Below, one piece after another: positions 177 through 25,755 of a DNA stretch of 25,755 bases. The stretch lies in UHGV virus genome UHGV-0287771; one strand, written 5' to 3'. This DNA is from a virus. Under the pieces are notes generated by a model that had not been told where the DNA came from, made no database searches, and was given only the letters and a program-made list of their open reading frames with translations. The number at the start of each line of letters is the position of its first letter. The first letter of the stretch is position 1. The translations under genes were made by a program, and so were the position numbers.

Positions 177-536
177 ATGGATTATTCACAGTTAAGTGAT
201 TTTGAAATTAACGTGGCGGTATTCGAAGCCATTCATAACGGATCACCGGATTACAAAGAAGGTGAGAATGGCGATATGGTGTTTGTCTCATTTGAGGGAG
301 ACATTGTAAACGGAGACGCAGTTGAAGTAGAAGTTGAGCGCGGATCCTTTAACCCATGCGCAAACCCAGCAGACGCATGGCCGATTATTGGAAAATACAG
401 GATTAGCATTATCAATCTCGATGAAGACGAGTGGGGTGCACGCGGTGTGGCCTACTGTAAATCTAAGCGAGCTATACATGAAAATCCCCTCCGCGCCGCC
501 ATGATTGTCTTTCTCATGATGCAGAGAATCCAATAA
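177..536 (+). CDS. hypothetical nin-region protein (119 aa from ATG 177; frame is open from GTG 147)
   Basis: Long ORF in the six-frame track; GAGGAA at 164-169 sits 7 nt before ATG 177; lies upstream of ninG/ninH in a lambdoid nin arrangement. Function not recognised. Confidence 0.5.
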   Translation: MDYSQLSDFEINVAVFEAIHNGSPDYKEGENGDMVFVSFEGDIVNGDAVEVEVERGSFNPCANPADAWPIIGKYRISIINLDEDEWGARGVAYCKSKRAIHENPLRAAMIVFLMMQRIQ

Positions 537-721
537 TGCTTAGCCCATCCCAATCCCTTCAATACCAGAAAGAAAGCGTCGAGCGGGCTTTAACGTGCGC
601 TAACTGCGGTCAGAAGCTGCATGTGCTGGAAGTTCACGTATGTGAGCGTTGTATATATGAATGCTTAAATATGGTGGAACATAATGAGAAATATAAGCAA
701 CATAGACGAATTAAGAAATAA
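536..721 (+). CDS. small Cys-rich (CxxC...CxxC, zinc-ribbon-like) nin-region protein, 61 aa; C-terminal codons run into the AT-rich insertion
   Basis: ORF with two CxxC pairs (CANCGQ...CERC); start overlaps the stop of the previous ORF; its last ~12 codons overlap the HNH gene start. Confidence 0.4.
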   Translation: MLSPSQSLQYQKESVERALTCANCGQKLHVLEVHVCERCIYECLNMVEHNEKYKQHRRIKK

Positions 722-1190
722 ATTATCATATGATGATGTTTTAGGTGTACTTAGATGGAAAGTGTCTCCTTCTAATAATGTTAAGGTTGGCAGTGTTGCT
801 GGTTACATTAGGAGTGATGGTTATAGGATGTTAACTATCGATGGTGTAATTACTTATGCTCACCACGTTATATGGATGATAAATAATGGTGAGATTCCAT
901 TAGGGTATAAAATTGATCATATAAATGGAGTAAGGTCAGATAATAGGCTATCTAATCTTCGATTGGTTACACACCAACAGAATGCACAGAACCAAAAGAG
1001 AAAAATAACCAATTCGTCAGGAGTGACTGGAGTATATTTCAATAAAGAGAGATGTAAGTGGATTGCGAATATATGCGTAGATGGGCGCACCAAATATCTT
1101 GGAATATTTGCTAGCATCATTGACGCTATTGCAGAAAGGAAGAGGGCAGAAAAAGAACTGGGTTTTCATGAAAACCATGGTAGACCATAA
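684..1190 (+). CDS. HNH-AP2 family homing endonuclease (free-standing, AT-rich insertion)
   Basis: Translation carries an HNH motif (GYKIDHINGVRSDNRLSNLRLVTHQQN) followed by an AP2-like DNA-binding segment (SGVTGVYFNKERCKWIANICVDGRTKYLGIF); marked AT-rich composition against GC-balanced neighbours. Confidence 0.8.
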   Translation: MRNISNIDELRNKLSYDDVLGVLRWKVSPSNNVKVGSVAGYIRSDGYRMLTIDGVITYAHHVIWMINNGEIPLGYKIDHINGVRSDNRLSNLRLVTHQQNAQNQKRKITNSSGVTGVYFNKERCKWIANICVDGRTKYLGIFASIIDAIAERKRAEKELGFHENHGRP

Positions 1191-1243
1191 CTGTACAGAA
1201 CTGATGAGCGATCCGAATAGCTCAATGTACGAGGAAGAAGACG

Positions 1244-1513
1244 ATGAGTGATTTCTCTGAGCTTATTTCCTTCAAAAAAGACAGAGAAGAAATGCGGACT
1301 GAATCTGTCTATTACGTTCAACACCGGAATAAACGCTCGGTGCTTGATCAGGAGCTGGTTATTACCGGAGACCTGGCATTCAGAACATATAAGGCCAGCA
1401 TGGAAATGAAGGATTTCCCTAAATGTGGTTCTGAAAGAGAAGCCGCGTTAAAGCTGGCTGAGTGGATGCAGAGAATGGCTGCTGCAATTGAGAATTACTG
1501 GAGCGAACCATAA
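1244..1513 (+). CDS. hypothetical nin-region protein, 89 aa
   Basis: ORF ending at 1513 with the ninG ATG at 1513-1515 (overlapping stop/start); no family recognised. Confidence 0.5.
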
Positions 1514-21489: not shown

Positions 21490-23763
21490 ATGACTGATAC
21501 CAATTACCTGGTCTCTATGCCGTCCACTCCTTTTTCGGCGCCACGAGCATTTAAGTCAGTGGCGAACGGGAAAATCTACATCGGAAACCCTGACACTGAT
21601 CCGGTAAATCCTGCCAACCAAATCCCGGTATATGTCGTTAATGAGGATGGCTCCGAGGTTCAGGTTTCACAGCCAATCATCATTAACGCCGGCGGCTTTC
21701 CGGTCTATAACGGCCAGATTATGAAGTTCATCACGAAACAGAACTTCAGTATGGCGGTCTATGACGCATATGGAGCGCAGCAATTTTATTGGCCCGATTT
21801 ATCTCGCATAGATCCAGATACAGCATACAACACCATCATAAATAATATTGGCGCACAAGATGGACTGAAGTATGTTGGTCAGTGCTCAGATTTAACAGCT
21901 CTCAGGGCTATTGAGCCAACCGTTTCTAACCAGCGAATTAGTGTCGCTGCATACGCTCCCGGGTGGGCCTCGCTGACAGGTGCGCCTGTTGGCGGTGGTG
22001 AGTTTTATTATGACCCCAATGATACGACATCTTCTGATGACGATATTTTTATTTTTGTAACGGCTGGCGGTAAGCGCTGGAAGCGTGCTTGCTCCGGCAA
22101 AAAAATCTGCCTGGAATGGAAAGGGGTAAGGCCTGGTGATGATGCAGCTCCGGCATTAAATGCTATCGGCACTTACCTGAATAACAAGGCCATCGCAAAA
22201 GGTACTGTTTCCGGGCTTCCTCGAGTGCATGTCGGCGCAGGCGTTTACCCCCTGTCAGATACTGTCAACCTCACATACGCATTTCGCATAAAGGCGGTTG
22301 GTAATGTAGAATTTACGACAACGGACTGGGATAGCACGGTTGCAAAAGATATTTTCACTATCGCTAACCCTGCAAATATGCCTGCAGTTCCTGACAAGGG
22401 GTATGCAAGCGGTGACCCGTGGCTTAATGGTTCTGATGGCACCATTTTAATCACTGGTCCCGTCTATGATGCTGCGGTCACAAACAATGTGGTTGGCGTT
22501 GGTGTGGGAAACCTCGTCACCGGGCGGACGCCCGTTCGTGGTAATGTGATGCATGGCGTTTCAATCCGTTACTGTGGCAGTGCGATTTACCTGCGCATGC
22601 GTCGTCTGTACCTGACGTCATTTAGTCATGTTCACTGCGAGCTTAATAACACACATATTACCTGTCCTAACCAGTCAGGCACCGAAGACTCCGGGGAGCG
22701 TATTGCATTTCATGAGTGCGTTTTTGGCGGGTGCAGGAATCAGCACGTTTATGTATATATGACACCGGCTCTGCATTTTGAATCATGTTCATTCGACTTT
22801 GCTCAGGGGAGCGGTATTTATCTGGATGGGATATCTGAGTATGGTCTTTTTTCATTCACAAACTGCCATTTTGAGAACTTCAATAACTACCTTATTAATG
22901 CCCAGACCGGTTCTCGGGTCACTCTTCTGATTACTAATTGTGATGTATTCAATAACAGCCAGACTACGCCGGTTACCGCAGCATCTGCTTCATCCCCTTC
23001 CCGTCCTATGTTTAATCTTGCCAACGGCGGGAATGTGGTTATTAACGGATTTAAACTGAACTATTCATATCGACCTCTTGGTTCATTGAATATGCTGGTT
23101 TCGCCCGAGACACAAACTGCAGATACAAGAACACGAGTATCAGTTAACGGACTGACGGCGGGTGATAAGTCAATGACACCGTGCCCCGCAGCAGCGCATA
23201 TCATGAACCGATCAAATGATTTTAGCGGGGAAACTGTGGGTTCCACAATTACCAGCAAAATCGCATACACAACAACACATGTTCAGCCAGTACAGGACAT
23301 TGCAAGTTCGTGGGGCTCAGGGATGTCCGCATCTGTTGTCGCTGACGGTAGCACAAAGGGTTTGCAGATGGTGTCAGCAGACAATACTAACTTCGGTTAC
23401 ATTCAGCCAAAAACTGCGATTCCTGTTTCGCCAGGGCGCGCCTACTCAGCATATTTCAGTATCCAGAAGTTGCTGGCGGCTGGCGGAATCAACTGGTCTG
23501 TGAGCTATCTGTGGTACGACAAAGACGGGAACCTGTTATCTAACGATAGAGCTCTGTCAGGTCGGTTTTCCAGTGTATATAACGACACGACATTGCCGGG
23601 ATATTCAACAGATGCTACAGCAAACGGTAATAGAAAGTTGAGCACAACCATGTGCGTACGCATTGCGCCCCCCGGCGCTGCTTACTGTCGCCCATACTTT
23701 AGTGTGTCGTCGTTTACTGGAACTATAAATATCGTCAATTTTTTGATGTGGGAGTATCAGTAA
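21490..23763 (+). CDS. tailspike protein (P22 gp9-type N-terminal head-binding domain with divergent receptor-binding body)
   Basis: First ~110 aa resemble recalled P22 tailspike N-terminus ([35 protein letters not shown]...); remainder is beta-rich (Asn/Gly/Thr/Ser-rich) without recognised identity. Confidence 0.85.
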
Positions 23764-24039: not shown

Positions 24040-24054
24040 TTGTCGGGTGTGGAT

Positions 24055-24294
24055 ATGATAAGACGTAACGCCATAGCGGAGGCTTTCAGAGCCTCCATTT
24101 CTATAAATCCTAAAGGTTATCAATACCTTTACACGGATTCTTTCATCTCCGAACTACAGCGGAGGGGTATCCATTTCTCAGAGAAGGAGGCTAACAACTG
24201 GATATCGAGAGAGCAGACGTACTTTGTCGACAAGACGCCGGACCATAGCGAAAACAGGTTGTGGATGCTGGCGAATATGGGGAGGGTGATCTAA
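24055..24294 (+). CDS. hypothetical protein, 79 aa, first gene of the LexA-box operon
   Basis: ORF directly downstream of the LexA box; stop overlaps the start of the next gene (TAATG); function not recognised. Confidence 0.5.
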   Translation: MIRRNAIAEAFRASISINPKGYQYLYTDSFISELQRRGIHFSEKEANNWISREQTYFVDKTPDHSENRLWMLANMGRVI

Positions 24295-24611
24295 TGGGCT
24301 TTCCTTCACCCGCGACGGATTACGTTGAGCAGCGACTGTCCGTTAACTCGATCTGCAATGTCGGCCCTAACACCCGCGTTTTCGAAAGGGATGGCGGTTA
24401 TGTTGTGCTGGATATTTCCCTGAAGCCAAAGCAGGGTAGTCAGGTTCTGATCCAGCACGGCGGCGGTACGGAGCTTGCCACGCTGAGAGGAAAGTCACTG
24501 ATAACCGAAGACGGCGAAGCGATCGAGGGAGATGCTCTCGACGATGTCACTGTCATCGGTGTCGTGACGTTTACTATCTGCGATGTTCGTTCTGATAATT
24601 CTATTATTTAA
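24294..24611 (+). CDS. UmuD'-like (S24 LexA/UmuD-family fold) protein, apparently lacking the catalytic Ser
   Basis: Starts M-GFPSPATDYVEQR, matching the UmuD/MucA motif GFPSPAADYVEQR just after the UmuD self-cleavage site; GGGGAGGG SD 7 nt upstream; no G-D-S-M serine motif seen by eye, Lys retained in RGKSL. Confidence 0.6.
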   Translation: MGFPSPATDYVEQRLSVNSICNVGPNTRVFERDGGYVVLDISLKPKQGSQVLIQHGGGTELATLRGKSLITEDGEAIEGDALDDVTVIGVVTFTICDVRSDNSII

Positions 24612-24622
24612 CTGGGGTATAT

Positions 24623-25288
24623 ATGGCGCTGAAGCTATTAGCCAATAATAACGCAAAGAGTGTTCTCGCTGCGGGTATTAGCGCGTCCGCTACCGTTATT
24701 ACCGTGGGGTCGGGTGCAGGTGCTTTATTCCCCGCGCCGGTATCGGGAGAAAGCTATTTCAAATTAACGGTAACCGACGCCGCAACGAAAACAATCAACG
24801 AAATTATGCATGTCACATCTGTATCTGGTGACGTGATGACGGTAATTCGTGGTCAGGAAGGAACCACGGCGCGCGTATGGTCAACGAATGACATTGTCGC
24901 AAATTTAATGACCGCCGGCTCATTGTTATCGTTCCTGCAGATCAGCAATAACCTGTCAGAAATTAAAGATGCCGGTGAGGATGCGGTAAATGAAGCCCGT
25001 TATAACCTCGGAATATCTGATTCCTCTGGTTTTGTCGGGCGTTCTCTTGGCGCTCCAAAAGCGTTCTATGCAAACGGCACCTATACGCGCTCTCCTCTGG
25101 CCCGTTATGCAAAAGTAACGTTGGTCGGAGGTGGCGGCGGCGGTGGCCGGGCGGGTTCTCAGGCCGGTATTGCTGGCGCAGCTCCCGGATCCGGTGGTGG
25201 TGGCGCGTATGACCTTGGGTTTACCGGTACGGCATTTACCGGTGGTGATGGTGCTACTGGCATGGCGATCGTGGAAGAATTCGCGTAA
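24623..25288 (+). CDS. Gly-rich protein, 221 aa; N-terminal part reminiscent of phage fibre N-termini; possibly a truncated gene
   Basis: ORF 11 nt after the UmuD'-like gene; C-terminal poly-Gly/Gly-X stretch (VGGGGGGGRAGSQAGIAGAAPGSGGGG...); followed by ~430 bp without a convincing ORF before the att core. Confidence 0.5.
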   Translation: MALKLLANNNAKSVLAAGISASATVITVGSGAGALFPAPVSGESYFKLTVTDAATKTINEIMHVTSVSGDVMTVIRGQEGTTARVWSTNDIVANLMTAGSLLSFLQISNNLSEIKDAGEDAVNEARYNLGISDSSGFVGRSLGAPKAFYANGTYTRSPLARYAKVTLVGGGGGGGRAGSQAGIAGAAPGSGGGGAYDLGFTGTAFTGGDGATGMAIVEEFA

Positions 25289-25717
25289 TGGCTTACACTC
25301 CTGCACGACCATCGATGTAATCAGCCCACCACTGCATCATCTACCTGCGCTTATCGAGATACTGAGCATGGTTGTAAATCCCACGCACAGATCCGCCGTT
25401 GGCATGAGCGAGTTGCACTTCGATAGTTTCGTGATGCACCAAGTGATCAAAGTCATGAAATTTAACATCCAAGCCTCCATCGATCGATACTTGCGGTAGT
25501 TGATAAGGAAAAACTATGGTACACAAAGCGTTGCACTGGATTGCAAGGCTTTGTGCTCTTCTGTGGATGTGTGGCTACATGTTTGAAGATCGTTGTGCCG
25601 CATTTGTGACATACACATGACAACATCATGCATCAACTTTCTGTTTGTGCCATCAACTATAGCTTAGTGAATGCGGTTAATGCTTGCTAAAACAGATAGT
25701 TATGATTGGTGCTACAG

Positions 25718-25755
25718 ATTCGTAATGCGAAGGTCGTAGGTTCGACTCCTATTAT
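25718..25755 (+). other. 3' portion of a tRNA-Thr(CGU)-like gene (anticodon loop, T-arm); candidate attR core, truncated by the window end
   Basis: ATTCGTAATGCGAAGGTCGTAGGTTCGACTCCTATTAT contains the anticodon-loop sequence with CGT and a canonical T-arm GGTTCGACTCC; the 5' half of a tRNA is absent upstream (sequence diverges before 25718). Confidence 0.6.

Follow-up and report, generated by a model that had tools for sequence, protein, structure and literature searches.

Genes that encode an HNH endonuclease with an AP2 domain belong to an established family (Magnani, Sjolander and Hake 2004, as cited in PMC10448857). A gene of this kind was found in the virus genome UHGV-0287771, a stretch of 25,755 nucleotides (nt) which is in the following called the window and to which all positions refer. 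It interrupts the gene ninF of a lambdoid prophage and is probably a free-standing homing endonuclease gene (HEG). Like the HNH-AP2 family of phages, cyanobacteria and ciliates and like the 'IPA-HNH' genes of Vibrio phage ICP1 (Barth et al. 2023, PMC10448857), it appears to encode an N-terminal His-Me finger nuclease and a C-terminal AP2-type domain. With the IPA-HNH genes it further shares a product of about 170 amino acids (aa), a high AT content, the free-standing state and a sporadic occurrence in phage genomes (PMC10448857). The HNH_3 motif of the ninF element is canonical according to Pfam, while the ICP1 genes have diverged too far to be recognised by this profile (PMC10448857). In addition, it resides in temperate lambdoid prophages inside a host open reading frame (ORF), while the IPA-HNH genes are located between the genes of virulent phages. 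I-HmuI from Bacillus phage SPO1 (1u3e) is also similar, as an N-terminal beta DNA-binding region is followed by an HNH part with the residues Asp-His...Asn. In contrast to the ninF element, I-HmuI is encoded by a group I intron and carries a helix-turn-helix domain instead of AP2 at its C-terminus, and it is a strand-specific nickase, whereas for the ninF enzyme either nicking or cutting is proposed.

Intronless homing with marker exclusion was reportedly described for T-even phages by Belle in 2002. Both phenomena are established for the free-standing endonucleases of these phages (Edgell, Gibb and Belfort 2010, PMC2988022). The Seg and Mob elements resemble the ninF element in that no intron or intein is involved and in that they are present or absent between otherwise collinear phages; for both, a spread by break repair with biased inheritance of nearby markers is predicted. 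However, seg and mob genes are usually intergenic and their enzymes cut at a distance with long co-conversion tracts, whereas the ninF insert is intragenic and the polymorphisms of its flanks occur in empty alleles as well, up to a distance of 4-6 nt from the junction. For the nrdA gene of Aeromonas phage Aeh1, Friedrich et al. are said to have described in 2007 an insertion of mobE that results in 'genes-in-pieces'. The two halves of the essential Aeh1 enzyme are both produced and come together again, while ninF is a tiny, non-essential gene with a putative remnant ORF of 24 aa. Another comparable case is atp6 of Allomyces, where Paquin, Laforest and Lang reportedly found in 1994 a mobile endonuclease ORF of a fungal mitochondrion with a replacement 3' end. 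This type of insert is likewise said to provide a new C-terminus and to leave the original 3' end as a downstream remnant; its new tail is reportedly a homologous copy of the 3' end, whereas the ninF insert restores a single cysteine codon and the rest is run-on sequence. A free-standing endonuclease gene that splits or fuses a phage ORF is common to Aeh1 mobE, the HEG-split nrdD of FelixO1-like phages (PMC4837284), eaE::HNH of epsilon34 (PMC2629481) and the element described here. The epsilon34 fusion also documents that HNH endonuclease genes do invade P22-like temperate phages (PMC2629481). Our searches of the literature on ninF, lambdoid phages, the nin region and homing endonucleases did not reveal any earlier account of an HNH endonuclease gene inside ninF. 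What is new is the precisely mapped HNH-AP2 HEG in ninF; the kind of element is already known and conceptually unsurprising.

The locus comprises the following features:

536-651, plus strand: native 5' part of ninF, codons 1-38 and two bases of codon 39, including C21, C24 and C36
536-721, plus strand: chimeric NinF ORF, 61 aa, made of 37 native residues, R38, C39 and 22 residues read from the insert (IYECLNMVEHNEKYKQHRRIKK)
648-649, plus strand: linked change AC to GT, codon 38 CAC to CGT, H38R
652-1190, plus strand: inserted cassette, 539 bp, between TG and C of ninF codon 39
652-683, plus strand: cassette leader, 32 nt, with Shine-Dalgarno-like GGTGGA at 673-678
684-1190, plus strand: predicted HNH-AP2 endonuclease gene, 507 nt, 168 aa (Pfam HNH_3, family profile, AlphaFold model)
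residues 1-57 of the endonuclease: predicted N-terminal beta region
residues 58-102 of the endonuclease: HNH_3 catalytic motif with D78, H79, N91, N100 and N103
residues 112-159 of the endonuclease: predicted AP2-type domain
1191-1251, plus strand: stranded 3' end of the native ninF, from the last base of codon 39 to the stop

The junctions were determined by direct comparison of the majority sequences of 29 occupied and 118 empty loci. At the empty site GAGCACTG is directly joined to CTGCGCAGAA, which is also the case in lambda, whereas at the filled site GAGCGTTG is followed by the insert (TATATATG...CCATAA) and the insert by CTGCGCAGAA. In a shorter form, GAGC AC TG followed by CTGCGCAGAA stands against GAGC GT TG, the insert and CTGCGCAGAA. 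These junctions are identical in all aligned copies. The cassette consists of the leader and the ORF, its right end coincides exactly with the HNH stop codon, and the GGTGGA motif as read from the sequence is located five bases ahead of the HNH ATG. The insertion falls between bases 2 and 3 of codon 39, the fourth cysteine of the zinc ribbon C21-x2-C24...C36-x2-C39, and the first base of the insert, T652, completes TGT and restores the cysteine codon of NinF. In lambda the insertion point corresponds to nt 42378/42379 of NC_001416. The original prediction, made from the sequence of the window, of a free-standing homing endonuclease that has invaded the phage is supported by these data but has to be refined: the gene is not merely adjacent to the upstream ORF, it is inserted in codon 39 of ninF, the 3' end of which persists at 1191-1251.

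Two bases upstream of the insertion point, the change that replaces H38 by arginine accompanies the element. Codon 38 is CGT in 29 of 29 aligned element-bearing loci and CAC or CAT at empty sites; in an 85%-identical relative (contig L006, see below) it is AAA. A search of IMG/VR for an uninterrupted ninF with CGT, which could be a loss scar or a resistant allele, gave 0 matches. The AC to GT change is either the start of the donor-specific DNA or a mark of immunity or co-conversion. The window copy itself deviates at 1194-1195, where it reads TGT ACA instead of the TGC GCA of 27-28 of the 29 other occupied loci and of most empty sites; these private or rare substitutions belong to the displaced 3' end of ninF, at a distance of 4-5 nt from the right junction. 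Due to these two substitutions a first reading of the junctions was misled. It assumed 548 bp replacing 9 bp with possible diverged target duplications of 18 bp at both ends and was rejected, as the majority of the 29 loci indicates a clean insertion of 539 bp. The gap placement by MAFFT in the alignment of filled and empty sites was also wrong and was replaced by the direct comparison.

The ninF gene of the nin region is small, conserved and dispensable and encodes a zinc-ribbon protein. The upstream cysteine-rich ORF was identified as NinF by Pfam (E = 6.4e-12) and belongs to PHROG 672. Its native 5' part is 97-99% identical to ninF of Huey, HK446 and lambda and shows haplotypes which are common with empty-site alleles. 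In these three phages the gene is uninterrupted, NinF comprises 58 aa and ninG follows directly. The suspicion that the insert had rewritten the C-terminus of this ORF proved to be correct: the last 22 residues are read from insert DNA, namely the leader of the cassette and the beginning of the HNH gene, which the ORF overlaps by 38 nt. The new tail is basic in place of the native acidic one, and the 61-aa piece keeps all four zinc cysteines. The original tail of 19 residues is stranded downstream of the cassette. Bases 1196-1260 are 98-100% identical to the ninF 3' end of many phages, and the haplotypes of the remnant are again common with empty-site alleles. An in-frame ATG at 1177, inside the HNH C-terminus and overlapping the HNH stop, would open a possible ORF of 24 aa (1177-1251). 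No clear ribosome-binding site precedes this ATG, the same in-frame ATG occurs in L006, and the stop of the ORF overlaps the start of the next gene (ATGAGTGA). The chain of overlapping starts and stops is unbroken from ninX over the 5' piece of ninF, the HNH gene and the 3' remnant to the next gene.

PGAP annotates both pieces around the HNH gene as 'protein NinF' in E. coli genomes. The insertion explains this oddity of two 'protein NinF' fragments on both sides of an 'HNH endonuclease signature motif containing protein', for example in E2348/69 and B7A. The start chosen for the second fragment varies among genomes (75 nt vs 153 nt), which is an artefact of annotation and not decay. The same is true for an apparent HNH pseudogene in B7A (150 nt and 'incomplete' in RefSeq; locus L003, 1785-2291), because its DNA does not differ from the intact ORF of 507 nt (100% identity).

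The 168-aa protein is, as judged from sequence profiles and the predicted structure, an HNH-AP2 endonuclease of the family already described. The HNH motif seen in the original prediction was confirmed, as residues 58-102 match Pfam HNH_3 with E = 1.2e-19 and 70.1 bits (cut-off 24.8). The ORF also matches PHROG 99, 'HNH endonuclease', with E = 3.4e-70. All 44 of 44 homologues match HNH_3; D78, N91 and N103 are invariant among them, and H79, N87 and N100 are conserved to at least 90%. In the family profile the Asp-His...Asn residues align with the DH...N motif of I-HmuI, which is the best profile match and is matched over the nuclease half (1u3e, E = 3e-10). An AlphaFold model of the protein has a pLDDT of 88.6. 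Its best match in the PDB according to Foldseek is I-HmuI as well (1u3e, E = 4.7e-4, probability 1.00), followed by AP2 domains, and the model shows a beta-beta-alpha-metal fold similar to that of this solved member. The nearest phage proteins are at most 52% identical. They are often present in several copies and annotated as 'homing endonuclease', and they stem from virulent siphophages of Klebsiella and E. coli. Some database proteins of this family are partial.

The AP2-like domain, which had also been proposed, could be upheld on grounds other than a direct match. Searched with this protein alone, Pfam AP2 gives E = 0.0077-0.024 and 15-17 bits and does not reach its cut-off of 33.3. However, 26 of the 44 homologues match AP2 with E <= 0.01 (best 3.2e-8), and positions 110-159 of the family profile match the solved AP2 domains of WRI1 (7wq5, E = 4.7e-6) and TEM1 (7et4, E = 0.0033). 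The AlphaFold model predicts an antiparallel sheet of three strands (117-120, 125-132 and 135-142) packed on one helix (145-159), for which Foldseek finds the AP2 domains 7et5 (root mean square deviation 1.9 A over 50 columns), 1gcc and 7wq5 with a probability of about 1.0. A C-terminal AP2-type domain is therefore below threshold by sequence but supported by the homologues, the family profile and the predicted fold.

The AT-rich block described in the original prediction is evident on recalculation and coincides with the ORF 684-1190. In 200-nt windows the GC content is 0.315-0.36 between about 650 and 1100 and 0.45-0.50 on both sides. The donor-specific segment 648-1190 (543 bp) has a GC content of 34.8%, while 47 non-overlapping 543-bp windows of the whole window have a mean of 49.3% with a standard deviation of 3.2% (z = -4.5). 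It is the GC minimum of the 25.7 kb, as every other 548-bp window is at least as GC-rich. The GC content at third codon positions is 0.28 for the HNH ORF and 0.45-0.65 for the adjacent genes. The low values for the segment (34.8% vs 49%) and for the third codon positions indicate a foreign origin of the cassette and are listed in support of an HEG.

The relative with 85% protein and 79.5% DNA identity is encoded by the 909-nt contig L006. Its gene follows a diverged ninF-like 5' end (...IHVCEKC) with the same junction TG/TATATATG, and is itself followed by a diverged ninF tail (MADPNGQMLEKDDG*) and then by a YbcO gene, not by ninG. The right junction (L006 525-600) is missing the final 6 nt of the HNH gene together with some 20 nt of ninF, and the HNH ORF is extended by 8 codons into out-of-frame ninF sequence. 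The ninF tail and the ATG within the conserved ...ENHG motif have stayed in the same frame. Part of the leader is conserved, with AGGAG ahead of the HNH ATG. Further relatives of this type were searched for in metagenome and viral contigs, which gave only the type of the window or distant HNH genes. A fidelity to the site across this divergence is suggested by this one 909-nt contig.

As for the distribution, 45 of 5426 complete E. coli genomes contain the insert at an identity of at least 98%, and in each of them it is surrounded by the NinF pieces. Intact ninF was found in 1343 of these genomes, which corresponds to an occupancy of about 3%, so the gene is sporadic and not universal. IMG/VR contains 30 contigs with the insert and at least 120 with an empty site. 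The uninterrupted sites that had been expected in relatives thus exist in these contigs as well as in Huey, HK446 and lambda. Among the species-representative genomes a protein scan gave no relatives, and the junction pattern TGTGAGNNNTGTATATATG gave only chance matches in unrelated taxa. The conserved unit is ninF plus insert only, roughly from 536/570 to 1246-1254. It is found in at least five types of upstream and at least eight types of downstream gene context, ninG, orf89, a KilAC antirepressor and DUF1364 being among the latter. In some element-bearing genomes up to six places match a ninX-ninF-ninG query (six in NZ_CP148466.1), whereas a single endonuclease copy is present; the element may coexist there with other lambdoid nin regions in one chromosome.

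The nucleotide diversity of the insert is 0.0052, whereas the flanks of the same occupied loci show 0.030 (5' ninF) and 0.020 (3'), similar to the 0.026 (5') and 0.022 (3') of empty alleles. The insert is 4-6 times less diverse than its own flanks. The occupied loci represent 15 flank haplotypes, and 18 of 29 loci are identical to a haplotype of an empty allele. All 29 aligned loci have retained an intact ORF, in which 14 variants are synonymous and 7 non-synonymous; of all copies, 29 of 30 are intact. The exception is L035 (IMGVR_UViG_3300023488_000025, at about 2750), where an insertion of 1 nt near window position 936 causes a frameshift within the HNH motif; it is the sole clearly inactivated copy seen.

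Taken together, we regard it as likely that 652-1190 is a free-standing HEG of the HNH-AP2 type which spreads by homing. One exact site is occupied or empty among close relatives, and the empty alleles are intact. The history of the insert also appears incongruent with that of its flanks, as indicated by its low diversity, the 15 haplotypes and the multiple contexts. A young and constrained sequence on old and diverse flanks is what a recent spread by homing predicts, and the element seems to have spread recently among lambdoid prophages. That the protein cleaves DNA and homes is what one would expect from the families involved. The marker exclusion and gene conversion suggested in the original prediction are inferences of the same kind, backed at the population level by the low diversity of the insert on diverse flank haplotypes.

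The proposed cycle would start in lytic growth or upon induction, when the cassette would be transcribed as part of the delayed-early nin operon. Uninterrupted ninF would be recognised around GAGCACTG/CTGCGCAG by the AP2 and N-terminal DNA-binding parts of the enzyme, and its I-HmuI-like His-Me finger active site would nick or cut the empty gene. Recombinational repair from an element-bearing genome would then copy the cassette into the empty allele. The occupied allele would be immune due to its split site, and possibly also due to the linked H38R. As a result, the inheritance of the cassette and its immediate flanks would be biased in mixed infections or between co-resident lambdoid prophages. 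A promoter and terminator scan revealed no promoter-like site on the plus strand in 300-1700 and no terminator of the cassette's own. As no own promoter was found, the cassette probably depends on the delayed-early nin transcript. A consensus scan showed a weak terminator-like hairpin GTTCACGTATGTGAGC at 632-660 on the plus strand with 6 pairs, half of which are G-C. The start of the insert provides the T-rich tail GTTGTATATA, and the hairpin therefore exists in occupied alleles only; it is probably not functional.

Several points weigh against homing. Classical homing usually co-converts the flanks, yet here occupied and empty alleles have flank polymorphisms in common up to 4-6 nt from either junction, so that the co-conversion tract was either almost nil or was lost again through subsequent recombination. 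The strong mosaicism of the nin region is well known, and homologous recombination in the conserved ninF flanks could shift a passive insert between contexts. The occupancy is as low as about 3%, and at the DNA level the element was found in 0 of 50,697 records of isolated phages and was seen only in prophages and viral contigs. Moreover, the target site is guessed from the insertion point, and among free-standing phage endonucleases cleavage at a distance of hundreds of bases from the endonuclease gene is frequent (PMC2988022).

The strongest alternative, to which we assign a small chance, is as follows: a single entry into ninF by illegitimate recombination may have been followed by ordinary shuffling of a passive module through Red, Rad52-type or RecA recombination in the ninF flanks, with the nuclease either serving another role, such as the exclusion of competing phages or defence, or being neutral. 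The low occupancy and the recombination of flank polymorphisms to within a few bases of the insert fit this explanation, as does the high mosaicism of the nin region, where orf89, a KilAC antirepressor, YbcO and DUF1364 swap at the ninF-ninG boundary. However, these genes replace one another at gene boundaries and have ATGA-type overlaps, while the HNH cassette breaks a codon. A passive module would in addition need a recent sweep to be 4-6 times less diverse than its flanks on many haplotypes. Its closest homologues are multi-copy homing endonucleases, and the 85%-identical relative uses the same insertion point in a diverged ninF.

It is very unlikely that the element is a dead relic, that is, an inactive endonuclease at a late stage of the homing cycle that drifts to loss. 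The frameshift in L035, the partial database proteins and the low occupancy could be read in that way, but all 29 aligned copies are intact with a synonymous to non-synonymous ratio of 14:7 and conserved catalytic residues, and the very low diversity speaks for a recent origin and not for old decay.

The chance that the endonuclease is borne by an intron or intein, and that splicing at the RNA or protein level restores NinF, is practically nil. A coding sequence broken at a conserved functional residue is indeed typical of introns and inteins. With Rfam (cmscan, 4227 families, positions 400-1600, E <= 1) 0 matches were obtained, and the ORF fills 507 of the 539 nt (94%), which leaves only 32 non-coding nt and no room for a ribozyme core. 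An intein is impossible because the 5' part of ninF, the HNH gene and the 3' part of ninF each use a frame of their own and 539 cannot be divided by 3. A transposable element or insertion sequence with a nuclease, which a discrete AT-rich insert within a gene might suggest, has next to no probability either, since a transposase is missing, terminal inverted repeats and a target-site duplication were looked for at the cassette and not found, and the about 75 copies found are all in ninF.

The HEG is located in the opening part of the window, and its neighbours in the nin region include:

147-536: NinX, nin region of a P22-like E. coli prophage
1513-2124: NinG, nin region

The source prophage is P22-like and from E. 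coli. The order in the nin region is NinX, NinF (from 536), NinG, NinH, NinI and a Q-like antiterminator, which is followed by lysis genes, terminase, portal, coat, ejection proteins and tailspike. An ORF of 89 aa (1244-1513, plus strand; PHROG 1258, without Pfam match) separates the ninF remnant from ninG and is tied to these neighbours by ATGA and TAATG overlaps. It is missing from Huey, HK446, lambda and B7A, and follows ninF in 18 of 119 empty-site loci and in 2 of 30 occupied loci. As it is found in both kinds of loci, it is a separate optional gene which is independent of the endonuclease. In phage Louie (L005, 1554-2331) two adjoining ORFs of 510 and 276 nt, both annotated as HNH endonuclease, are located directly downstream of an intact ninF, and an HNH endonuclease is listed beside ninF in some E. 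coli prophages, including those of PK8217 and 14EC007. Other nuclease genes may repeatedly have landed at the ninF-ninG/rusA junction. At the other end of the window the tailspike gene (21490-23763) is followed by an 84-aa ORF (PHROG 3893), a UmuD-like ORF (24261-24611) and a tail-fibre-like ORF of 221 aa (24623-25288). The gene content of this stretch (24040-25755) is unexpected at the end of a P22-like late region and may be cargo or the edge of another element.

An extension of the homing model, which taken as a whole we hold to be improbable, combines two ideas. The kept cysteine, the swap of the tail from acidic to basic and the preserved chain of overlaps could mean that NinF is still functional in a re-tailed or two-piece form. 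Secondly, uninterrupted ninF is present in about a quarter of the E. coli genomes, and therefore the enzyme may act mainly on resident prophages upon the induction of, or infection by, its own phage. If this is true, homing would proceed from prophage to prophage and would damage rival lambdoid prophages in multi-prophage cells.

Such elements are little studied in temperate phages in comparison to the T4-like phages. The locus would provide a naturally polymorphic homing-endonuclease site in the lambdoid phages, which are the best-studied temperate phages. As lambda holds the predicted empty target, homing, co-conversion and marker exclusion would be directly testable in the setting of a temperate phage and its prophages.

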